Origin: Escherichia phage vB_EcoM_PTE-Eco05
Direction: 5' to 3' (one strand)
DNA: 64,000 nt
Sequence record: PQ306573.1
Shown: positions 32,948-57,562 of the stretch, piece after piece
Layout: every line of letters begins with the position of its first letter
Position numbering within the stretch: the first letter of the stretch is position 1
Program-made: the position numbers and the translations under genes
The notes under the pieces: generated by a model
What the model saw: only the letters and a program-made list of their open reading frames with translations
The model's database searches: none
Told to the model about the DNA's origin: nothing

Positions 32948-33196
32948 ATGATTAAACAATTACAACACGCTCTTGAACTGCAACGAAACGCATGGAATAA
33001 CGGTCACGAAAACTACGGCGCGTCAATTGATGTTGAAGCCGAAGCACTGGAAATCCTGCGTTATTTCAAACATCTGAACCCGGTACAGGCAGCTTTGGCC
33101 TCTGAACTGGAAGCAAAAGATGAACTGAAATATGCTAAGCCTTTGGCTTCTGCAGCTCGTAAAGCAGTACGTCATTTTGTTATTACCCTTAAATAA
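32948..33196 (+). CDS. rIII: lysis inhibition accessory protein RIII
   Basis: 82 aa, MIKQLQHALELQRNAWNNGHENYG...RKAVRHFVITLK, near-identical to T4 RIII. Confidence 0.95.
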   Translation: MIKQLQHALELQRNAWNNGHENYGASIDVEAEALEILRYFKHLNPVQAALASELEAKDELKYAKPLASAARKAVRHFVITLK

Positions 33197-33490
33197 GTTT
33201 TAGGTGATTCGCTACCTTAGTGCGGCTAGAAAATCGAGGAGCCGTCGAACTGTCTGATTAATGATTTGCGAATCATTATAGTTTTAAGACCCCGACAGTT
33301 TTACGGTGTACCTCTTGAATGTATTTTGTACTATCACGCGTCAGAAAAAGGTTATCTGTCTAAGTCGTGGTTGGTATGATGACGGGTTTATGGTTATCCT
33401 GTCGTTAAATATCCAAAACCTATGTTCCCCTTGAGGGCTTGCGCAGGCAATGTCAATAAGTCCTGCATTTTCATTTAAAGAGAATTTATA

Positions 33491-33670
33491 ATGGCAAAAC
33501 AAGCTAAAGCAAAGAAAGCAGTCGAAAAGAAAGTTGATGGTACCTCTAAACGCGCTGGATACAAGCGTGGGTCGAACTCTCGTATTAATCAAACAGTTGA
33601 GAAGATCATGCGCAGAGCACGTGCAGTTCTTCGAGATGATGCTTCTCGTTTTGGAAAGGTTGTTGCATAA
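33491..33670 (+). CDS. hypothetical small basic protein (59 aa), absent from the ORF track
   Basis: ATG at 33491 to TAA at 33668-33670; Lys/Arg-rich (MAKQAKAKKAVEKKVDGTSKRAGYKRGSNSR...); followed at once by a UUCG terminator hairpin. Confidence 0.45.
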   Translation: MAKQAKAKKAVEKKVDGTSKRAGYKRGSNSRINQTVEKIMRRARAVLRDDASRFGKVVA

Positions 33671-33675
33671 TTTTA

Positions 33676-33693
33676 GGGAGACTTCGGTCTCCC
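33676..33693 (+). terminator. rho-independent terminator (GGGAGAC-UUCG-GUCUCCC plus U-run)
   Basis: Same 18-nt hairpin as after gene 32, followed by TTTT. Confidence 0.7.
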
Positions 33694-33730
33694 TTTTGTG
33701 AGTTTAGGGCAGAAAAAGTTTAAAAAAGAT

Positions 33731-33759
33731 GTTTACTCTCCTGTAGGATGTGTTACTAT
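33731..33759 (+). promoter_or_regulatory. early-type promoter (GTTTAC ... TGTGTTACTAT)
   Basis: GTTTAC 33731-33736, 17-nt spacer, TACTAT 33754-33759; precedes the block of ORFs upstream of ligase. Confidence 0.55.
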
Positions 33760-33800
33760 AGACTTGTACCACCTAATCAATAAAACAACCGGAGAATAAA

Positions 33801-34166
33801 ATGAACTACATCAACTTCGAACGCAAATATGTTTCTAACGGTATCGCTGGTTCTATCGATATGGTTTGCTTGTGGAAGCATAAAAATGGTTCAGTATGTG
33901 AAATTGAGCAGTATATGACTCCTAATTACGTTTATATGCGCTTTGAAAATGGTATCACGGTTTCAATCACGATGGAAGGTTCCAACTTCAAAATTGCATT
34001 AGATGACGATTTCCGTCAACGTGATTTAGGTACTCATCCTTGCTGGAACGGTGTTAATCGTAAACTTCTGGTTAAAACTTGGATTCGTCATATCCTGAGT
34101 AACCGAGCTAAACCTGAACATCTCGAAGCAATCTTTGATGTAGTTCTTAACGAATTCGATATCTAA
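33801..34166 (+). CDS. hypothetical protein (121 aa)
   Basis: ORF track; RBS GGAGAATAAA. Confidence 0.55.
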   Translation: MNYINFERKYVSNGIAGSIDMVCLWKHKNGSVCEIEQYMTPNYVYMRFENGITVSITMEGSNFKIALDDDFRQRDLGTHPCWNGVNRKLLVKTWIRHILSNRAKPEHLEAIFDVVLNEFDI

Positions 34167-34173
34167 TTTAACT

Positions 34174-34189
34174 GGGAGCCGAAGCTCCC
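34174..34189 (+). other. GC-rich hairpin (GGGAGC-CGAA-GCTCCC)
   Basis: 6-bp stem with 4-nt loop between two ORFs; no U-run on the plus strand; reads as a UUCG loop on the minus strand. Confidence 0.4.
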
Positions 34190-34205
34190 TATTGAGGAAA
34201 ATATT

Positions 34206-34493
34206 ATGTTTATGACCACTTATTTCGATACTCGTAAAAATTTCTGTGAAGTTGTTTTCTCTAAAGCAGGTAAAGATGTTCCTGCCGACAAACAGCCCAC
34301 TCGTGAATCCATTAAGGCTTATGCTGATGTGGTTTGTCCAGTAGAATTCCGTACAGTCAATGGTCGTGACACCCTAGCAATCACTAAGCTCAACTATGAT
34401 ATTAACATCGACCCTAGCGCCGCAAGTGAAGTCAATACCTCTGACATCTATGGCGGTAATGTTAAATCACACGGATTTCAGATGAGGTTCTAA
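34206..34493 (+). CDS. hypothetical protein (95 aa)
   Basis: ORF track; RBS GAGGAAAAT. Confidence 0.5.
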   Translation: MFMTTYFDTRKNFCEVVFSKAGKDVPADKQPTRESIKAYADVVCPVEFRTVNGRDTLAITKLNYDINIDPSAASEVNTSDIYGGNVKSHGFQMRF

Positions 34494-34687
34494 TGCAACT
34501 ATTCTTATCACAAACTGTCCAGTTAAAAGGTATAGGTATCCCCGGAATGATTTCAAAGGTTTTACATGCTTTTAAAATTAACGGTAATGTAATTAAAGAA
34601 GCCTATGCAGTCCTGTGGGTTGATGGAACTGAAGACGTCCGCATGAGCCAAGAACTGTCTGTAATCAAATGTTTAAAGCGAGGATAA
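34493..34687 (+). CDS. hypothetical protein (64 aa)
   Basis: ORF track; overlapping start/stop with neighbours. Confidence 0.45.
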   Translation: MQLFLSQTVQLKGIGIPGMISKVLHAFKINGNVIKEAYAVLWVDGTEDVRMSQELSVIKCLKRG

Positions 34688-34688
34688 T

Positions 34689-34907
34689 ATGTTTAAGAAA
34701 CTGATGCAGAAATTGTTTGGTACGGAAATGATCGAAGTTACTTATCGTGTAACAGACGTTTTTCCATATTATGCAGAAAACCGTTTAGAACCATACGTTA
34801 CGTCAATTAAAATGCCTAAAAACGATGGAAATTTATCTATCGAAGACCGTATACCTGGATACGGTCATTGGGCTGATGTTGAAATTATAAGTGTTAAAGA
34901 TGTCTGA
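34689..34907 (+). CDS. hypothetical protein (72 aa)
   Basis: ORF track. Confidence 0.45.
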   Translation: MFKKLMQKLFGTEMIEVTYRVTDVFPYYAENRLEPYVTSIKMPKNDGNLSIEDRIPGYGHWADVEIISVKDV

Positions 34908-35358
34908 ATTAGAAATAAGAAGTAATTTCAAGTGGCCGTCATGTGCATTAAGTAACTTTGCTCAATGGTCTTTTGTTATGGATGGTATTCAATTCGGAGG
35001 TCTTGAAGGATTTCTCCAAGGATGTAAGGTGAAAAATGTTGAACAACAAAGACGTATATTTGGGCTGTCTGGATTGGCTGCACAGCAAGCTGGAAGGTCT
35101 TATGCAAGAGCTCAGGACCGTGGGACTCTCTTCTGGTTAGGAGTTCCATTTTCAAGATACTCCGAAGCATGGAAAGAATTATACACAAATGCATATTTTG
35201 AAGCCGCGATCCAAAACAAAGGGTTTCGTGATGCGTTACAAGCCTCTAAAGGAAAAATTTTGAAGCACAGCATGGCCAGCCACCTAACAAAAGATGATAC
35301 AATACTAACTGAAGCTGAATTTATTGATGTGTTAAACCTATTAAGAGACTCTTTATGA
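34891..35358 (+). CDS. NADAR-like (YbiA/DUF1768-like) domain protein
   Basis: 155 aa; SNFAQW...DG...LEGFLQGCKV and ...AAQQAGRSYARA...EAWKELYTNAYFEAAIQNKGFRDAL resemble the SNFA.W / E.YFQ..KF / AARMGR motifs of E. coli YbiA as recalled; start may be the internal ATG at about 34900. Confidence 0.55.
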   Translation: MLKMSELEIRSNFKWPSCALSNFAQWSFVMDGIQFGGLEGFLQGCKVKNVEQQRRIFGLSGLAAQQAGRSYARAQDRGTLFWLGVPFSRYSEAWKELYTNAYFEAAIQNKGFRDALQASKGKILKHSMASHLTKDDTILTEAEFIDVLNLLRDSL

Positions 35359-36179
35359 AGCCTACTATTTTGACTGATATTGATGGTGTATGTTTAAGCT
35401 GGCAATCTGGACTTCCTTATTTTGCCCAAAAATATAATCTCCCATTAGAACATATTTTAAAAATGATTCAGGACGAAAAATTTATTTCTCCTGGTAAACT
35501 ATTCAATACCGACGATAACCTTGGTAAACAATTAATAGAAAAATATAATAGCTCTGATTTTATTCGTTACTTAGCGCCTTATTCGGATGCTCTTCGAGTT
35601 ATCAATAAACTAAAAGAAGACTATAATTTTGTAGCCGTGACGGCGCTAGGTGATTCAATTGATGCTCGATTGAATAGACAATTTAATTTGAATGCTTTGT
35701 TCCCAGGCGCTTTCTCTGAAGTAATGATGTGTGGTCATGATTCTTCAAAGGAACAATTATTTGAACTAGCTAAAACAAAATATAACGTGATTTGTTACGT
35801 TGACGATTTAGCTCATCACTGTGACCATGCAGCAGAAATTCTTAATGTACCGATTTATTGGTTGGCTCGTGGTGAACGTGATGCCATTCCTCGTACTGCA
35901 CAACGTGTACACACGTGGGATGATATTGAATCTCATTTGGTTCCACCTGAGCATAATTCAGATTCAGATCGTGAAGACCTTTTAAAACGATTGGCGGATT
36001 TGCTTAAAGAATCTGGTGCAACAAGTCCAGGTGCATGGCCTAATCAAATTGGTGGCCCCTCGACAACACGTACTCCATATACCTGGCGAACCCCAGGACC
36101 AACTGATATGCAGCCGTGGTGGACGATTCAAAACTTTCCTTTAGATTCGTCTAAATGGACTTGGTCTATAAATTGTTAA
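35355..36179 (+). CDS. HAD-superfamily hydrolase-like protein (putative nucleotidase/phosphatase)
   Basis: 274 aa; N-terminal HAD motif I ILTDIDGV; C-terminal ~50 aa has unusual Pro/Trp/Thr-rich composition. Confidence 0.6.
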   Translation: MKPTILTDIDGVCLSWQSGLPYFAQKYNLPLEHILKMIQDEKFISPGKLFNTDDNLGKQLIEKYNSSDFIRYLAPYSDALRVINKLKEDYNFVAVTALGDSIDARLNRQFNLNALFPGAFSEVMMCGHDSSKEQLFELAKTKYNVICYVDDLAHHCDHAAEILNVPIYWLARGERDAIPRTAQRVHTWDDIESHLVPPEHNSDSDREDLLKRLADLLKESGATSPGAWPNQIGGPSTTRTPYTWRTPGPTDMQPWWTIQNFPLDSSKWTWSINC

Positions 36180-36188
36180 GGGTTAATT

Positions 36189-36458
36189 ATGTTTGTAGTT
36201 CATGATATTACAGATGGCAAAAATACCACACGTGACTACGGTCACGTTAACATGTTCTTTCGAGACTGGCCATTGTTTCGTTCAGTAAAAGACGCAGAAA
36301 TATTTAAAGAGTGTGTTGAACAAGGGTTCATCTACATTTCAGAATACTATGTTGAAGGACTCGGTAAATGGATTACCACTTATCAGAAAACGCTGAAATC
36401 GCTTCTAGATGAAGTGGCTTATAATAGAACCGTAACCAAAATCGAGGACATCAAATGA
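36189..36458 (+). CDS. hypothetical protein (89 aa)
   Basis: ORF track; stop overlaps the ligase start. Confidence 0.5.
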   Translation: MFVVHDITDGKNTTRDYGHVNMFFRDWPLFRSVKDAEIFKECVEQGFIYISEYYVEGLGKWITTYQKTLKSLLDEVAYNRTVTKIEDIK

Positions 36459-37948
36459 TTTTAGATATTTTAAACCAAATAGCTGCGATCGGTTCTACTA
36501 AAACAAAACAAGAAATCCTTAAGAAAAATAAGGACAACAAATTACTTGAACGTGTGTATCGTTTAACATATGCACGTGGTATCCAGTATTATATTAAGAA
36601 ATGGCCAGGACCAGGTGAAAGGTCTCAAGCGTATGGTCTTCTCGAATTAGATGACATGTTGGATTTTATTGAGTTCACATTAGCCACTCGTAAACTCACT
36701 GGTAATGCTGCAATTAAAGAGCTCATGGGTTATATCGCTGACGGTAAACCTGATGATGTAGAAGTCCTTCGTCGTGTAATGATGCGCGACCTTGAAGTAG
36801 GTGCTTCAGTGTCTATCGCGAATAAGGTGTGGCCTGGACTTATTCAATTGCAACCACAGATGTTAGCATCTGCATATGATGAGAAATTGATTACTAAAAA
36901 TATTAAATGGCCTGCATTTGCTCAATTAAAAGCCGATGGTGCTCGTTGTTTCGCTGAAGTTCTCGATGATGGTGTTCAATTCTTTTCTCGTGCCGGTAAC
37001 GAATACCATGGTCTTACTCTATTAGCGGATGAACTAATGGAAATGACTAAAGAAGCTCGTGAAAGACACCCTAATGGGGTTTTAATCGACGGCGAATTAG
37101 TTTATCATTCATTTGATATTAAAAAGGCTGTGAGCTCAGGAAATGACCTGTCGTTCTTATTTGGTGATAATGAAGAATCCGAAGAAGTACAGGTTGCAGA
37201 CCGTAGCACTTCAAATGGTTTAGCAAATAAATCTCTTCAAGGGACTATTTCTCCTAAAGAAGCGGAAGGTATGGTTCTTCAAGCCTGGGACTATGTTCCT
37301 TTAGATGAAGTCTATTCTGATGGCAAAATTAAAGGTCAGAAATACGATGTTCGTTTTGCTGCTCTTGAAAATATGGCTGAAGGCTTTAAGCGAATTGAGC
37401 CGATTGAAAATCAGTTAGTTCGTAATCTTGATGAAGCTAAATTGGTTTATAAAAAATATGTTGACCAAGGTCTTGAAGGTATTATCCTTAAAAACCGTGA
37501 TTCATATTGGGAAAACAAACGCTCTAAGAACCTAATTAAATTTAAAGAAGTTATTGATATCGCTTTAGAAGTTGTAGGATATTATGAACACTCTAAAGAC
37601 CCTAACAAATTAGGTGGTGTCGAACTCGTATCACGTTGTCGTCGTATTACAACCGATTGTGGTTCAGGGTTTAAAGATACAACTCATAAAACAGTTGATG
37701 GTGTAAAGGTTCTTATTCCTTTAGATGAGCGTCATGATTTAGACCGTGAACGATTAATGTCCGAAGCTCGTGAAGGTAAATTGATTGGACGTATTGCTGA
37801 TTGTGAATGCAATGGTTGGGTTCATTCTAAAGGACGTGAAGGCACTGTAGGTATTTTCCTTCCAATTATTAAAGGGTTCCGTTTTGATAAAACAGAAGCG
37901 GATTCATTTGAAGACGTATTTGGACCGTGGTCCCAGACAGGTTTATAA
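36455..37948 (+). CDS. 30: ATP-dependent DNA ligase
   Basis: 497 aa, MILDILNQIAAIGSTKTKQEILKKNKDNKLLERVYRLTY...KADGARCFAEV (adenylation lysine motif KADG), near-identical to T4 ligase in conserved blocks. Confidence 0.96.
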   Translation: MILDILNQIAAIGSTKTKQEILKKNKDNKLLERVYRLTYARGIQYYIKKWPGPGERSQAYGLLELDDMLDFIEFTLATRKLTGNAAIKELMGYIADGKPDDVEVLRRVMMRDLEVGASVSIANKVWPGLIQLQPQMLASAYDEKLITKNIKWPAFAQLKADGARCFAEVLDDGVQFFSRAGNEYHGLTLLADELMEMTKEARERHPNGVLIDGELVYHSFDIKKAVSSGNDLSFLFGDNEESEEVQVADRSTSNGLANKSLQGTISPKEAEGMVLQAWDYVPLDEVYSDGKIKGQKYDVRFAALENMAEGFKRIEPIENQLVRNLDEAKLVYKKYVDQGLEGIILKNRDSYWENKRSKNLIKFKEVIDIALEVVGYYEHSKDPNKLGGVELVSRCRRITTDCGSGFKDTTHKTVDGVKVLIPLDERHDLDRERLMSEAREGKLIGRIADCECNGWVHSKGREGTVGIFLPIIKGFRFDKTEADSFEDVFGPWSQTGL

Positions 37949-38136
37949 TGAAAGCTTATTTAGAAACAGTTATTGTAGCTAAGAAGGATGGTGGAGATGT
38001 TTCCACCTCTTGCTCTCAGATTATATTAGATTTTCCTAATGAAAATTCGTATCGGGTTTTCGTAGATAACGTTAATGGGTACGAAAAAGGCCCCAATTTT
38101 GAAGTTTATCGTACTTTGCTCCCGATTGTGGATTAA
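37948..38136 (+). CDS. hypothetical small protein (62 aa)
   Basis: ORF-track entry trimmed to ATG overlapping the ligase stop (TAATG). Confidence 0.45.
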   Translation: MKAYLETVIVAKKDGGDVSTSCSQIILDFPNENSYRVFVDNVNGYEKGPNFEVYRTLLPIVD

Positions 38137-38150
38137 GAGCCTTCGGGCTC
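38137..38150 (+). terminator. rho-independent terminator (GAGCC-UUCG-GGCUC plus UUUUU)
   Basis: 5-bp stem, UUCG loop, five T residues, immediately after the ORF stop. Confidence 0.65.
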
Positions 38151-38191
38151 TTTTTGGCATAAATATAAATTATTACTAAAAGGAAAACACT

Positions 38192-40279
38192 ATGTCTGAA
38201 CAATTAAATGAAGTGTTTGAATCTGAAGGCAGTCTTCCTGTCGTCAATTTGAACCCTAAAGCTAAAGTTCCACAAGTCTGGAAAATTGGTGATATCGATA
38301 CAAACATCGTAGTTCGCTTATTCTCTTACCTTTCTGAAGGCGATGCTGTAAAACAAGTTAAACTTGGCGACAAATACGCTCATGTTGTTATTATGAGTCT
38401 GTCTGAAAAGGGTAATCTCGCTGAATTGAAAAATGGCCTTGGTCCTACTCCTATTGATGCAATCAACACCATTTTCAATACAGTATATGAACAGGTTAAA
38501 GCTCTTCGTATGGATGCAGTTCTGTTCCGATTCCCTACCAAGAAATTGAAAGGACGTGGACAGCAGCTTCAAACTCTTCTTGCTCGTTTAGTTTCTACTA
38601 AAACCGGTGGTCGTTTTAAAGTATTGTCGGCAATGTATCAATTCACAGGTAAACACACCTATGTGATGATGGTTCGTAAAAATGCCAACATTGAAGATAT
38701 TAAAGGCATCCCTAACATTAACACAGAGTTGTACACGAAAGTAGATTCTGATGTTGGCGAAGTTTATGTGAGTAAAAAGACTGGCGAAAAGGTCACCAAA
38801 GAAACGGCTATCGCTGGTTCTATTGCTGCTGTAGAAGAAAAACGTAAAGATAAGCCTGTTATTGCTCGTACTAAAATTTCTCGTCGCGCTATTGCCGCAA
38901 GCCAATCTTTAGAAGCTGACCGCCAAGAAGGTGAGTTATTCCAGAAATATGAAAATTCTGCTAAAGAAGTTAGTGGCCCGGCTACAGCCGAATTACTTCC
39001 TGAAGCATATGAAATCGTACTAGCCCAAGCATCGTCCACAGCAAAAGGCACTTTAGTTGCTGATATCGAAAATAAGATTTATAATCGTATTGATGAATCC
39101 TTTAGATTTGCTGATGAAGTTTCTTATGGTAGTGTTATTAAGCCAACTTTAGAAAAGTTTGCTAAAAAAATTAAAACTGAAAAAACAACATCTGTTAAAG
39201 CATTAGCTGCTTTTGTTGAAGCTGCAAATGAAATTGCAGACTCTATTAAAGACGAATGGTTTGAAGATTTTAGACGTGATAATTTCCAACTGGCCGACGA
39301 TGTTTTAGCTGAAGTATCTGAAAAAACTTGGAAACAACGTAAATCAGCGTTCTTGTCTAATGTGATGTATACTTATGCACGAGAATCGGCTAGAGGCACC
39401 TTTAATATAACAATGAATCGGGACCCTAAACAATACTCTGTTGCTGAAAAACGAGCTATTCGTGAATATGCCTCTTCTGCGTATACCGATATCAATAATA
39501 TGTTGTTAGGTCGTTATAAACCAGATTTTTACGATGTTGCGGATGAAGATGAAGTTAAACGCGCTATTGATGGTCTTGATTCGGCGTTTTTAAATGGAGA
39601 CCGTTTACCTGAAGGACTAACGTTATATAGAGCTCAGTCTATCAGAATGCCTATTTACGAAGCAATGGTTAAAAATAAGGTATTCTACTTCAGAAACTAT
39701 GTTTCCACTTCACTAGCTCCTATTATTTTTGGTGGGTTTAAAGAGAACGTTGCCCTTGGACTTGCTCCTGAAGAAGTTCGCAAAGAGCTTAACATTGACA
39801 ATAATGACGAAGGTGTTACTATTTCTCCTAGTCAAGTAAGAACAGCTATGCATGCTCCAGAACAAATCCGTGTTAACGTTGGATGGGCTATTGATGGCGC
39901 CCATAAAGTTAACGTGATTTATCCAGGACAGTTGAGTAATCACCCTAATGAGCAAGAAATTATTTTGCCTAGAGGCATTCTCTTGCAGATAAATAAAATT
40001 ACAGATGCGTCATCTGACACCGGTGCAGGTTTAGAATCCAACCTTAAATTTATTCAAGCTGAAGTCATGTCCTCAGACCAGTTGGATGAAGCCGTCATTT
40101 ATGATGGTGATGTTCTCATGGAAACAGGCGAGGTGGTTGCTATGACGGGTGAAATCGAATCGGATGAGCCGGTATCGTTCTCCTCATTTGTAGAAAAAAC
40201 TAGTGCACCTAAAGGTTTGAAATTGTTAGCATCTTTAATGGATTTAGAATCAGTTCCGTTTAAATTTGTCCAAGGATAG
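38192..40279 (+). CDS. alt: ADP-ribosyltransferase Alt (capsid-packaged, modifies host RNA polymerase)
   Basis: 695 aa; N-terminus ...LPVVNLNPKAKVPQVW... and length similar to T4 Alt; R-S-E type ART motifs (YRAQS, YVSTSLAP, HPNEQEIILP); located between ligase 30 and baseplate gene 54 as in T4. Confidence 0.82.
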   Translation: MSEQLNEVFESEGSLPVVNLNPKAKVPQVWKIGDIDTNIVVRLFSYLSEGDAVKQVKLGDKYAHVVIMSLSEKGNLAELKNGLGPTPIDAINTIFNTVYEQVKALRMDAVLFRFPTKKLKGRGQQLQTLLARLVSTKTGGRFKVLSAMYQFTGKHTYVMMVRKNANIEDIKGIPNINTELYTKVDSDVGEVYVSKKTGEKVTKETAIAGSIAAVEEKRKDKPVIARTKISRRAIAASQSLEADRQEGELFQKYENSAKEVSGPATAELLPEAYEIVLAQASSTAKGTLVADIENKIYNRIDESFRFADEVSYGSVIKPTLEKFAKKIKTEKTTSVKALAAFVEAANEIADSIKDEWFEDFRRDNFQLADDVLAEVSEKTWKQRKSAFLSNVMYTYARESARGTFNITMNRDPKQYSVAEKRAIREYASSAYTDINNMLLGRYKPDFYDVADEDEVKRAIDGLDSAFLNGDRLPEGLTLYRAQSIRMPIYEAMVKNKVFYFRNYVSTSLAPIIFGGFKENVALGLAPEEVRKELNIDNNDEGVTISPSQVRTAMHAPEQIRVNVGWAIDGAHKVNVIYPGQLSNHPNEQEIILPRGILLQINKITDASSDTGAGLESNLKFIQAEVMSSDQLDEAVIYDGDVLMETGEVVAMTGEIESDEPVSFSSFVEKTSAPKGLKLLASLMDLESVPFKFVQG

Positions 40280-55993: not shown

Positions 55994-57562
55994 TTAGATG
56001 CCTTTTACATATACACGGCGGAAGTAAGCGTTCTTACCAAGGCTGTTCAGGATAGACGGCATACCTGACTGGATGCGAGCACCTGGAGCCTGCAGGGAAC
56101 TTTCAGCAAACGGGTTAACACCGATACCGTAACGAGTTTTAAAGCCCATTACCGGCTGGAAGTTCTTAGGATCGGAACCACGCAGTGGGGTAAGTGCAAC
56201 GTAAGGAGCATAGTAAATACCTGCATCCATTTCGTTAGCGCCTTTGTAACCAACGGTGAAGTAATCCTGTTTAGCATACTGGTCGATGTATACGCGGTAT
56301 TTACCACCAAGTACACCGGCAAATACAGACTTAGTAGTGTCGGTATTAAAACCAGAAGCTAGACCCTGTGCAGCGTAAGAAATACCAGTATCAACTGAAG
56401 CCAGTACGTTAACTACGTTACGGGAAGCGATAATGAAGTTACCTTCACCACGACCGGTTTGACGAGCAATTTCAACTGCTTCTTTATCAATCTGGAACAA
56501 CAGAGATTTAAAGCTTTCACCGGCCCAACGAGCACCACGGATATCAATCGGGTCCTGGAAGTCAAATACACCAGCTTTAGAACCCGGAGTCAGGGTCATA
56601 CCAGATTTACCAACCTGTGCTGAGTAGTTAATCCAATCAACAACTTCACGGTTGATTTCTAGCATAATTTCTGTAGCCAGAATACCGCTCAGTTCAGCAT
56701 CAGCATCCATACCGTGTACTGCACGGAGGTCTTGTGCTAATTCGATAGAGTAAGCAGCTTTCAGCTGGCGAGATTTAGCTTCGATAACTTGTTTATCGAT
56801 ACGGAAGCCCATTTCATTCCATGGGTTATCGGTAGAACCGTTGAAACCTTCCTGGAGTTCAGCGATAGAAGTAGCCATACCTTCAGCGATTTCTACCAGT
56901 GCACCAGCTTCCATTTGTTTCTTAACTTCTGCATCTAATTTAGCTGCATCAGTTGCACCAGAATCAAGTGTTACGACAGCAGAAGCTTGCAGATATACAG
57001 TACCAGTTTCTTGGAAGAAGTGAGTATAGATATCACCTACAACAGTAGTAGTGTCAGCAGCCAGAGCTGGGAATTTCTTAGCAGCACCCTGACCAGAGAA
57101 CATCGCGTCTGGGGCATACATCGGATGGAAAGCTTCTTTAGCGCCGGCAGCGATAGGGTCTTTACCATATACCGCACGGAGAGCAAATACCTGACCGGTC
57201 GGGCTGTTCATAGGCTGAACACCACAAATATCAAAAGCGATCAGATTAGGAATAGCACGACGAACCATACCCATAACTGCCGGCCCAATTTGGGTTACTG
57301 CACCAGAGGTTTGACCCGCTGCGATGTTCTGAGCATTATAACCATGGTCACCACCAATTTCAGCTTCGGTCAAGAAAGAACCAAATGCCTGAGCGATTTT
57401 CTCGTCTTTATATTCAGGGGATACTTCGAAATCTTTTTCCTGGTTTTCGAAGATTTTAGCGATAATAGCCTGCTTGCTATTAGCGATTTCCGGCAGGCCT
57501 TCACCTTCCAGCAGTTCTTTCCATTTGTCTACGAGCTGAGCTTTAGTTTTGATAGTAGTCAT
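55994..57562 (-). CDS. 23: major capsid protein gp23 (precursor)
   Basis: 522 aa, MTTIKTKAQLVDKWKELLEGEGLPEIANSKQAIIAKIFENQEKDF..., near-identical to T4 gp23. Confidence 0.98.
   Translation of the reverse strand: MTTIKTKAQLVDKWKELLEGEGLPEIANSKQAIIAKIFENQEKDFEVSPEYKDEKIAQAFGSFLTEAEIGGDHGYNAQNIAAGQTSGAVTQIGPAVMGMVRRAIPNLIAFDICGVQPMNSPTGQVFALRAVYGKDPIAAGAKEAFHPMYAPDAMFSGQGAAKKFPALAADTTTVVGDIYTHFFQETGTVYLQASAVVTLDSGATDAAKLDAEVKKQMEAGALVEIAEGMATSIAELQEGFNGSTDNPWNEMGFRIDKQVIEAKSRQLKAAYSIELAQDLRAVHGMDADAELSGILATEIMLEINREVVDWINYSAQVGKSGMTLTPGSKAGVFDFQDPIDIRGARWAGESFKSLLFQIDKEAVEIARQTGRGEGNFIIASRNVVNVLASVDTGISYAAQGLASGFNTDTTKSVFAGVLGGKYRVYIDQYAKQDYFTVGYKGANEMDAGIYYAPYVALTPLRGSDPKNFQPVMGFKTRYGIGVNPFAESSLQAPGARIQSGMPSILNSLGKNAYFRRVYVKGI

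Follow-up and report, generated by a model that had tools for sequence, protein, structure and literature searches.

A T4-type AdfN (NADAR) allele predicted to counter DarTG1, and a neighbouring HAD-type enzyme, in Escherichia phage vB_EcoM_PTE-Eco05

The stretch of 64,000 nucleotides analysed here (the window; sequence record PQ306573.1) comes from Escherichia phage vB_EcoM_PTE-Eco05, a T4-like phage (Tequatrovirus), and carries upstream of its DNA ligase gene two overlapping reading frames, ORF 1 and ORF 2 (Table 1). Very probably, ORF 1 encodes AdfN, a NADAR enzyme that counters the DarTG1 defence, and ORF 2 encodes gp30.2, a separate HAD phosphomonoesterase which acts outside that counter-defence. 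The anti-DarT role of the T4 equivalent of ORF 1, gene 30.3, is published, with deletion, in vitro and transposon results available for T4. The guess of a first-pass annotation that this gene counters DarT-like toxins was right and the result is already known; T4 work from 2023 to 2025 had established the biology, so the locus adds only another allele.

Table 1. Features discussed in the text, with their positions in the window
Feature	Positions	Strand	Basis or remark
Terminator-like hairpin after 30.9	33676-33697	+	GGGAGAC-TTCG-GTCTCCC then TTTT; read from the sequence
Early-type promoter-like site upstream of 30.7	33731-33759	+	Read from the sequence; putative function
T4 gene 30.4 orthologue, 72 aa	34689-34907	+	phrog_2042, E=6e-35
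adfN (ORF 1), T4 gene 30.3 orthologue, 152 aa	34900-35358	+	PF08010, identity to T4 gp30.3, fold
Catalytic motif of AdfN, E36-G-F-L-Q-G-C-K43	35005-35028	+	E36 codon 35005-35007, K43 codon 35026-35028
H123 codon of AdfN	35266-35268	+	Invariant in alignment of 63 homologues; adjoins predicted last beta-strand, 120-122
C-terminal alpha-helix of AdfN, aa 138-152	35311-35355	+	Modelled as helix over 138-151; intact
gp30.2 (ORF 2) catalytic core, aa 1-195	35355-35939	+	HAD-superfamily phosphatase-type fold, helical C1 cap
gp30.2 C-terminal extension, aa 196-274 and stop codon	35940-36179	+	Model, alignment
ATP-dependent DNA ligase (gene 30)	36455-37948	+	PF01068, phrog_114
Alt ADP-ribosyltransferase	38192-40279	+	PF03496, phrog_802

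Both reading frames are present at the coordinates first proposed and contain the motifs quoted for them, and their Pfam or phrog matches and homologues exclude an origin as chance ORFs. A GTG at 34891 opens the frame of ORF 1, and the start equivalent to that of T4 is the ATG at 34900. Numbered from this ATG, the motif SNFAQW occupies residues 18-23, LEGFLQGCK residues 35-43 and the third motif, AAQQAGRSYARA, residues 60-71. The product matches Pfam PF08010 (Phage_30_3) at 231.2 bits, with a cut-off of 36 (E=4e-69, profile positions 1-138 of 138), and is 96% identical to T4 gp30.3 across all 152 residues. The two proteins share E36, K43, H123 and the C-terminal helix, and their genes have the same neighbours, with 30.4 upstream (8-nt overlap) and 30.2 downstream (4-nt overlap). 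Six substitutions separate them (window residue, position, T4 residue: K11R, S24P, E89P, I120V, M125I and H128G), all of which leave the conserved positions untouched; E36, G37, F38, Q40 and K43, which include the catalytic Glu and Lys of the E-x3-Q-x2-K motif, are invariant in an alignment of 63 family members. Residues 129-152 are identical to those of T4 and the ORF is full length, whereas the helix is absent from the defective RB69 allele. The internal ORF 30.3' annotated in T4 is interrupted by a stop codon in the window allele.

The AlphaFold2 model of the protein has a pLDDT of 92.8, and its only Foldseek matches in the PDB with a probability of at least 0.99 are NADARs, namely YbiA (2b3w), the ADP-ribose-bound enzyme of P. 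nicotianae (8bau) and that of G. lovleyi (8bat). A single-sequence search of the PDB with the ORF gave no matches; YbiA was reached only with the family profile, as its sole match (2b3w, E=0.009, over the SNF...E..Q..K core); an NCBIfam search gave nothing useful for either AdfN or gp30.2. A histidine in the last strand marks the phage (gp30.3-type) NADARs, whereas the YbiA type has glutamate and the BC4488/DarG1 type aspartate (PMC11125620, PMC11543638). H123, immediately after the predicted strand, gives the window protein the phage-type residue. The NADAR-like character first proposed for ORF 1 is thereby upheld by the profile match, the NADAR-only fold matches and the identity to T4 AdfN, and neither the profile searches nor the structure prediction placed the protein in an unrelated fold.

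T4 gp30.3 was given the name AdfN (anti-DarT factor NADAR) in 2025. In vitro, phage NADAR cleaves ADP-ribose from guanine in DNA (PMC11125620, PMC11825919), and purified T4 AdfN strips ADP-ribose from DNA (PMC11825919). Deletion of adfN in T4 or T2 results in loss of plating on DarTG1, while ectopic AdfN rescues RB69, in which a frameshift cuts the last 15 AdfN residues and lowers activity (PMC11825919). The substitutions E36A and K43A also impair the T4 enzyme (PMC11825919). The two experiments envisaged for ORF 1, in vitro removal of ADP-ribose and plating of a deletion mutant, have in this way already been published for T4, with the predicted outcome. In a T4 transposon screen, insertions in 30.3 were lost on DarTG1 hosts (log2FC -7.25), and this phenotype was, in the portion of the data examined, specific to DarTG1 (10.1101/2025.11.20.689424). 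In published NADAR assays the substrates were limited to DNA with ADP-ribose linked to guanine or to thymidine, and hydrolysis was confined to the guanine adduct. With all key residues conserved at 96% identity, the window allele would be expected to have the same activity on guanine-ADP-ribose and the same role against DarTG1 as shown for T4. AdfN is among the clearest cases of phage capture of an antitoxin-like enzyme that erases a host-inflicted DNA modification, and an intact adfN allele predicts resistance to DarTG1-type defence, which is useful in the choice of phages for DarTG-positive hosts.

The mechanism proposed for the window phage would begin with the host toxin DarT1, which would ADP-ribosylate guanines in the phage DNA and block replication. 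AdfN, a stand-alone phage-type NADAR presumably made early in infection, would then hydrolyse the N-glycosidic guanine-ADP-ribose bond, yielding free ADP-ribose and a replicable template and allowing the phage to plate on DarTG1 hosts. E36 and K43 would contact the ADP-ribose, joined in catalysis by the phage-specific H123, and the C-terminal helix would be required for full activity. Thymidine-ADP-ribose, the product of DarT2, would not be a substrate.

The expectation that the NADAR alone would rescue cells from a DarT-type toxin is opposed by the published behaviour of T4 AdfN, which, expressed alone, leaves uninfected cells unprotected against DarT1 and gives T5 and Bas25 hardly any help, suggesting that the in vivo mechanism has a T-even-specific requirement. 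There is a slight chance that the factor concerned is encoded by a neighbouring gene, either gp30.4 or gp30.2, and that gp30.2 acts against a different ADP-ribosylating or nucleotide-based defence; if true, counter-defence at the locus would depend on a small unit of several parts and not on a single enzyme. Among T-even-like loci which carry gp30.4, its gene always and only occurs immediately before the NADAR gene. In the part of the transposon table examined, T4 30.4 insertions were moderately depleted on DarTG1 (log2FC -1.79, adjusted p 0.014) and, apart from 30.3, 30.4 was the only gene significantly depleted (10.1101/2025.11.20.689424), although this depletion is probably a polar effect. 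Only T-even-like phages show its pairing with the NADAR gene. In distant phages the ORFs immediately preceding the NADAR gene bear no relation to gp30.4, which was for this reason rejected as a conserved partner of NADAR.

ORF 2 (35355-36179, 274 aa) is the orthologue of T4 30.2 and starts in an ATGA overlap with the adfN stop codon. It matches phrog_420 (E=2e-78) and has 99 database homologues; T4 gp30.2, of the same PHROG 420, a HAD-like family of T4-like phages, is about 87% identical over residues 1-195 and shares the position between 30.3 and 30.1. The motif ILTDIDGV, from which a HAD hydrolase had been suggested, is present (D8, D10), and the model has a Rossmannoid HAD core of high confidence with all four phosphatase motifs (DxD, Thr/Ser, Lys and DD), encoded at 35376-35384 (D8/D10), 35640-35642 (T96), 35748-35750 (K132) and 35802-35807 (D150/D151). 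D8, D10, K132, D150 and D151 never vary across 66 homologues, and T96 is kept in at least 90% of them. The score with Pfam HAD_2 is 16 bits, below the cut-off of 23.8, so membership of the HAD superfamily is assigned from fold and motifs, which bear the suggestion out.

Most likely, gp30.2 would be a Mg-dependent HAD phosphomonoesterase in which, by analogy with other HAD phosphatases, D8 acts as the nucleophile, D10 as the acid/base, T96 and K132 in phosphate binding and D150/D151 in metal binding. Its likeliest substrate would be a (deoxy)nucleotide or similar small phosphoester, because of the small-molecule-type helical cap and the closeness to 5'(3')-deoxyribonucleotidases. These enzymes (cdN/mdN 2jao, 2i7d and 6g2n; 3bwv) are among the top fold matches and have, like gp30.2, a HAD core, a small helical cap and a DxDGV motif I, but the identity is 16-19% and gp30.2 is extended by a helix and a disordered tail, together about 80 residues. 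NT5C (PF06941) is the commonest Pfam match among gp30.2 relatives, found in 9 of 65 close and 34 of 90 distant ones, with best E-values of 0.002 and 4e-10, respectively, and with one relative (P0340) exceeding the cut-off; gp30.2 itself has no match to this family. Searches of PDB sequences with gp30.2, both as a single sequence and as a profile, gave non-significant matches only, the best being cytosolic deoxyribonucleotidase (E 0.12-0.33), and a literature search for 'gp30.2' found no papers. Fusion proteins with a gp30.2-like HAD (P0208, P0252, P0264 and P0296) were considered as a functional clue and set aside, their extra regions being without Pfam domains.

The gene most consistently linked to 30.2 is the ligase gene. 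In a redundant sample of 70 related loci, covered for 6 kb on either side, 65 carry ligase after the 30.2 homologue, directly or via the small 30.1 gene; gp30.2 is a HAD enzyme conserved beside ligase across very diverse T4-like phages. This linkage raises the alternative that gp30.2 is a PNKP-like 3'-phosphatase readying nicks for ligase, with the disordered tail as a tether to a protein of replication or repair. Polynucleotide kinase-phosphatase enzymes do have a HAD-type phosphatase domain (Pfam PF25109, HAD_PNKP), and one of the 90 distant relatives has a weak HAD_PNKP match (E=0.003). However, PNKP structures are absent from the top fold matches of gp30.2, and the modelled active site is covered by a helical C1 cap typical of small-molecule HADs, macromolecule-directed HADs being capless in the established structural classification of the superfamily. 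Moreover, T4-like phages have PseT for the end-phosphatase job, and the linkage to ligase may equally be synteny of the core region, in which gene 31, rIII, 30 and alt are all co-linear. A DNA-end phosphatase is for these reasons considered unlikely, and the phosphomonoesterase acting on small molecules is preferred.

The odd Pro/Trp-rich C-terminal tail ascribed to the HAD ORF agrees with both its composition and its predicted disorder. Beyond the core, a single amphipathic helix (aa 202-220) leads into a tail rich in Pro, Trp and Thr that is predicted to be disordered; residues 221-274 have a pLDDT of 45-53, and the last 54 residues contain 15% Pro, 11% Trp and 17% Thr. Among 65 family members the tail is at least 40 aa long in 40 and at most 20 aa in 22, and across the family Pro content is 11% in the tails compared with 4% in the core. 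Save for TWRTPG, the tail of the window allele largely differs from that of T4 and carries a 12-residue insertion, and the GIEY...NRPT motif of T4 and many relatives is missing. A frameshift was considered as the cause and rejected: the motif is absent from the other two frames, so the absence of GIEY is a genuine sequence difference. The gp30.2 tail is accordingly predicted by the model to be disordered and appears to be fast-evolving.

AdfN itself is most readily compared with two kinds of cellular NADAR. DarG1, the NADAR antitoxin associated with DarT1 (G. lovleyi 8bat, E. coli C7), has the same fold and hydrolyses guanine-N-ADP-ribose on DNA, and in a published phylogeny DarG1-type NADARs are the closest relatives of the T4-type clade. 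However, AdfN and DarG1 are only about 16% identical, the third catalytic residue is His in AdfN and Asp in DarG1, and adfN, unlike DarG1, is an orphan gene without a DarT partner; nor can T4 AdfN stand in for DarG1 in uninfected cells. E. coli YbiA (2b3w) is the top structural match to AdfN (TM 0.69, E=7.6e-5, 17% identity) but has Glu where AdfN has H123. The roles described for YbiA are those of a riboflavin-intermediate N-glycosidase and in swarming motility.

With YbiA as the closest solved structure, another reading is that AdfN, like E. coli YbiA, has as its physiological substrate a soluble compound, either a derivative of ADP-ribose or an intermediate of the riboflavin pathway, instead of ADP-ribosylated DNA. 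The failure of AdfN to detoxify DarT1 in uninfected cells would fit such a substrate, and phage NADARs have been argued to target mainly low-molecular-weight ADP-ribose derivatives (Iyer et al. 2022, PMC9503650). However, purified T4 AdfN acts on DNA ADP-ribose, deletion specifically sensitises T4 and T2 to DarTG1, and the transposon phenotype, in the data portion examined, is DarTG1-specific. A soluble compound is contradicted as the sole substrate and this reading is very improbable, although an additional soluble substrate is possible. Removal of ADP-ribose from DNA is retained as the function of AdfN.

Equally improbable is the broader proposal that NADAR (30.3), HAD (30.2) and Alt form a single ADP-ribosylation-handling or anti-defence module, in which the freed ADP-ribose, or a phosphorylated form of it, would be the substrate of the HAD enzyme and Alt would belong to the same pathway. 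Consistent with a module, 30.3 and 30.2 overlap within one early transcription unit, the pair is adjacent in 20 of the 70 related loci and AdfN needs a T-even factor in vivo. However, start-stop overlaps are usual among T4 early genes, so that this one says little about function. Of the 70 loci, 34 have a NADAR gene within 6 kb, leaving 36 with the HAD gene beside ligase and no NADAR gene within that distance, and the NADAR gene of Klebsiella phage Marfa belongs to the tRNA cluster, some 50 kb away from 30.2 and ligase. Alt modifies host proteins, whereas the NADAR assays used nucleic-acid substrates only and found activity on guanine adducts alone. Furthermore, in the transposon data, which cover one DarTG1 system in one host, T4 insertions in 30.2 (log2FC -0.12) and alt (-0.01) had no fitness defect on DarTG1 while those in 30.3 were lost, and the values for modA and modB were +0.11 and +0.13 (10.1101/2025.11.20.689424). 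Neither a shared phenotype on this DarTG1 system nor a conserved co-location of NADAR and HAD was found, and the single module is largely refuted for DarTG1. By the transposon data, alt is no part of the DarTG1 counter-defence, and gp30.2 would be a separate enzyme outside it.

The interval from rIII to ligase contains eight ORFs (30.9, 30.7, 30.6, 30.5, 30.4, 30.3, 30.2 and 30.1), T4's 30.8 being missing. The early-type promoter proposed at 33731 was thought to drive all eight, which does not hold for 30.9: since the site lies downstream of 30.9 and of the terminator-like hairpin, it could drive the other seven small ORFs plus ligase. It consists of GTTTAC (33731-33736), a 17-nt spacer and TACTAT (33754-33759) with an A-rich stretch upstream. 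In the alignment with T4 it corresponds to a similar element (GTTTAC...TATTAT) ahead of 30.7, and a comparable hairpin is found at the equivalent place in T4. In a generic scan for sigma-70 promoters and terminators, the overall counts of which were no higher than in shuffled sequence, the site fell below threshold and the hairpin at 33676 was unlisted. As neither was recovered in this way, the case for a promoter is the homology to T4, from which the site may be active. An Rfam scan of 33000-38500 returned no RNA families. Elsewhere in the window, a GC-rich bump at 56-58 kb corresponds to the major capsid gene.

The first of two adjacent ORFs upstream of DNA ligase, which the first-pass annotation had read from three motifs as NADAR-like, is adfN (anti-DarT factor NADAR), the orthologue of T4 gene 30.3. 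The ORF exists, all three motifs quoted for it are present, and its end-to-start overlap of 8 nt with 30.4 is exactly as in T4. Its product is 96% identical to T4 gp30.3 over the full length and scores 231 bits (cut-off 36) against the Pfam family PF08010 'Bacteriophage protein GP30.3'. In an alignment of 63 homologues, with identity down to about 35%, the invariant residues include S18, N19, F20, E36, G37, F38, Q40, K43 and H123, and the profile of this alignment matches E. coli YbiA (2b3w) in the PDB over the SNF...E..Q..K core (E=0.009). The only credible PDB neighbours of the AlphaFold2 model (pLDDT 92.8, pTM 0.88) are three NADAR structures, namely YbiA (2b3w; E=7.6e-5, TM 0.69), the P. 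nicotianae NADAR with ADP-ribose (8bau) and the DarT1-associated NADAR of G. lovleyi (8bat), all others having a probability of 0.03 or less. The six differences between the window allele and T4 all fall at variable positions. T4 also has an annotated internal out-of-frame ORF of 75 aa, 30.3'; in this phage a stop after 34 codons breaks it (window 35036-35263), which argues against 30.3' as a conserved gene.

Features of the adfN locus in the window (nucleotide positions)
Feature	Position	Strand	Remark
Terminator-like hairpin	33676-33697	+	5' of the promoter-like site
Promoter-like site	GTTTAC 33731-33736, 17 nt, TACTAT 33754-33759	+	seen in sequence
gp30.4	34689-34907	+	end overlaps adfN start
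ORF 1 (adfN)	34900-35358	+	open from GTG 34891; ATG 34900 is the T4 annotated start; 152 aa
ORF 2 (30.2)	35355-36179	+	274 aa; start in ATGA overlap with ORF 1 stop
Alt ADP-ribosyltransferase	38192-40279	+	confirmed by domain/family matches

Guanine-ADP-ribose made by the toxin DarT1 is reported to be hydrolysed by NADARs (Schuller et al. 2023). In the gp30.3 branch of the superfamily a histidine replaces the Glu of YbiA or the Asp of BC4488 (de Souza and Aravind, as quoted in PMC11125620 and PMC11543638), and H123 of ORF 1 is the histidine defining this phage branch. An E. coli phage gp30.3 NADAR removed guanine-ADP-ribose but not thymidine-ADP-ribose in vitro, and did not rescue cells from DarT1 (PMC11125620). 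Resistance of T-even phages to DarTG1 was subsequently mapped to gene 30.3, renamed adfN (Johannesman et al. 2025, PMC11825919). In the same study, adfN deletions of T4 and T2 did not plate on DarTG1 hosts, RB69, with a native allele shortened by 15 residues through a frameshift, was fully rescued by ectopic AdfN, and purified AdfN stripped ADP-ribose from DNA. AdfN function was impaired by E36A, K43A and C-terminal truncation, and full function was restricted to T-even infections. The phenotype has been confirmed by transposon sequencing (HIDEN-SEQ preprint, 10.1101/2025.11.20.689424). The anti-DarT reading of ORF 1 is thus already published, and the experiments proposed in the first-pass annotation have been done directly on the T4 orthologue. 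With E36, K43 and H123 retained and the C-terminal helix complete in the window allele, that central reading is, by analogy with T4, correct.

The further proposal that the NADAR ORF, the HAD-like ORF 2 and Alt form one module is not supported, with fitness data, gene neighbourhoods and independent movement of the NADAR gene all standing against it. Start codons that overlap the preceding stop are commonplace in T4 early clusters; as a sign of functional coupling they count for little. In the T4 transposon table of the HIDEN-SEQ supplement, which compares control with DarTG1, insertions in 30.3 are strongly depleted (log2FC -7.25, adjusted p 0), whereas values lie close to zero for 30.2 (-0.12, p 0.61, 71 insertion sites), 30.1 (-0.01), alt (-0.01), modA (+0.11) and modB (+0.13). 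These data concern one DarTG1 system in one host, so that 30.2 may yet have a role against another defence. Neighbourhoods were drawn from 77 profile-annotated IMG/VR loci around 30.2 homologues, 70 of which had full flanks and were counted. In this redundant and phylogenetically related set, ligase lies downstream of the 30.2 homologue in 65 of the 70 loci, while a NADAR gene is found within 6 kb in 34 and adjacent in 20. In Klebsiella phage Marfa (NC_048798.1) the NADAR homologue lies at 67.5 kb inside the tRNA cluster (locus L079, 3501-3953). The 30.2-ligase locus is some 50 kb away, at about 125 kb on the IMG/VR contig L061 (168,532 bp; taken to be Marfa), so the NADAR gene has moved independently of its T4 neighbours. 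The gp30.3-family NADAR of Klebsiella phage Roth17 (PQ657791.1; locus L080, 3001-3450) is labelled 'anti-CBASS protein acb1' in GenBank, which looks like a mis-annotation.

Besides 30.3, the only gene significantly depleted on DarTG1 among the rows considered of the HIDEN-SEQ table is 30.4, with moderate depletion (log2FC -1.79, adjusted p 0.014); the value for 30.5 (-3.0) is not significant. Read most simply, the 30.4 insertions probably affect adfN through polarity or translational coupling. Nothing else in these data hints at the T-even factor on which AdfN depends, and gp30.4 is a possible, if improbable, candidate for it. Among the IMG/VR loci, gp30.4 homologues are confined to T-even-like loci and there sit immediately upstream of the NADAR gene; where that gene is missing but 30.5, 30.6 and 30.7 are kept, gp30.4 is missing as well. 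Distant phages carry an ORF unrelated to gp30.4 at this position.

ORF 2, the orthologue of T4 30.2, was rightly placed at superfamily level as HAD-like, and the motif I quoted for it (ILTDIDGV) is present. Identity to T4 gp30.2 is 70% over the whole protein and about 87% over residues 1-195. The protein matches phrog_420, a family of unknown function (E=2e-78); Pfam HAD_2 reaches 16 bits, under its cut-off of 23.8. Across 66 homologues D8, D10, K132, D150 and D151 never vary and T96 is kept in at least 90%; between them they make up the four HAD phosphatase motifs, the DxD pair among them. Residues 1-195 are modelled at a pLDDT above 90, and motif I is followed by an inserted helical cap. When 1.84 billion representative proteins were searched with a profile, 1,082 relatives emerged; most of those listed stand alone as proteins of 190-220 aa. 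Pfam NT5C was matched by 34 of 90 distant relatives (best E 4e-10), above any other family. From sequence and model we infer that gp30.2 is a Mg-dependent phosphomonoesterase whose substrate would be a small molecule, with a (deoxy)nucleotide the most plausible. In a few relatives (P0264, 591 aa; P0296, 660 aa; P0208, 430 aa; P0252, 365 aa) the protein extends into a large N- or C-terminal fusion without a Pfam match, whose context could hint at function.

The odd Pro/Trp-rich tail remarked on in the first-pass annotation is borne out by the last 54 residues (15% Pro, 11% Trp, 17% Thr). In the model a helix at 202-220 is followed by residues 221-274 at a pLDDT of 45-53, which are probably disordered. 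Tails of at least 40 aa occur in 40 of 65 relatives and almost none in 22. Pro makes up 11% of tail residues and 4% of core residues, Trp 3.5% and 1.4%. The tail diverges from T4 save for TWRTPG. T4 and other relatives carry GIEY...N(R/Q)PT near the C-terminus, GIEY being found in 10 of the 65 sampled and usually followed by an N-x-x-PT-like motif, whereas the window allele (36060-36179) has neither, nor do the other frames of this end of 30.2. The window allele is a common one, with 238 members at 97% identity in cluster P0108. As judged from these comparisons, the tail is real and evolutionarily labile.

The region 33700-36500 matched 737 phage records by megablast, the best being Escherichia Tequatrovirus genomes at 95-97% identity, and gene order is as in T4 (gene 31, rIII, 30.9, 30.7, 30.6, 30.5, 30.4, 30.3, 30.2, 30.1, ligase (gene 30), alt), with T4 gene 30.8 absent from the window. 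Here 30.9, the hairpin, the promoter-like site and 30.7 follow directly in succession (33671-33800). T4 has two GTTTAC-type sites, before 30.8 and before 30.7, and the window has one, which aligns with the GTTTAC...TATTAT element upstream of T4 30.7. A generic sigma-70 scan did not reach this site, which by homology with T4 would act as a promoter. The early promoter postulated for eight ORFs is present as a site; as it lies downstream of 30.9 and the hairpin, its reach would take in seven of the eight small ORFs. Alt was correctly located. Further along the window, GC content rises to 44% at 56-58 kb, compared with about 37-38% elsewhere; this bump coincides with the major capsid protein gene (55994-57562, minus strand) and is ordinary.
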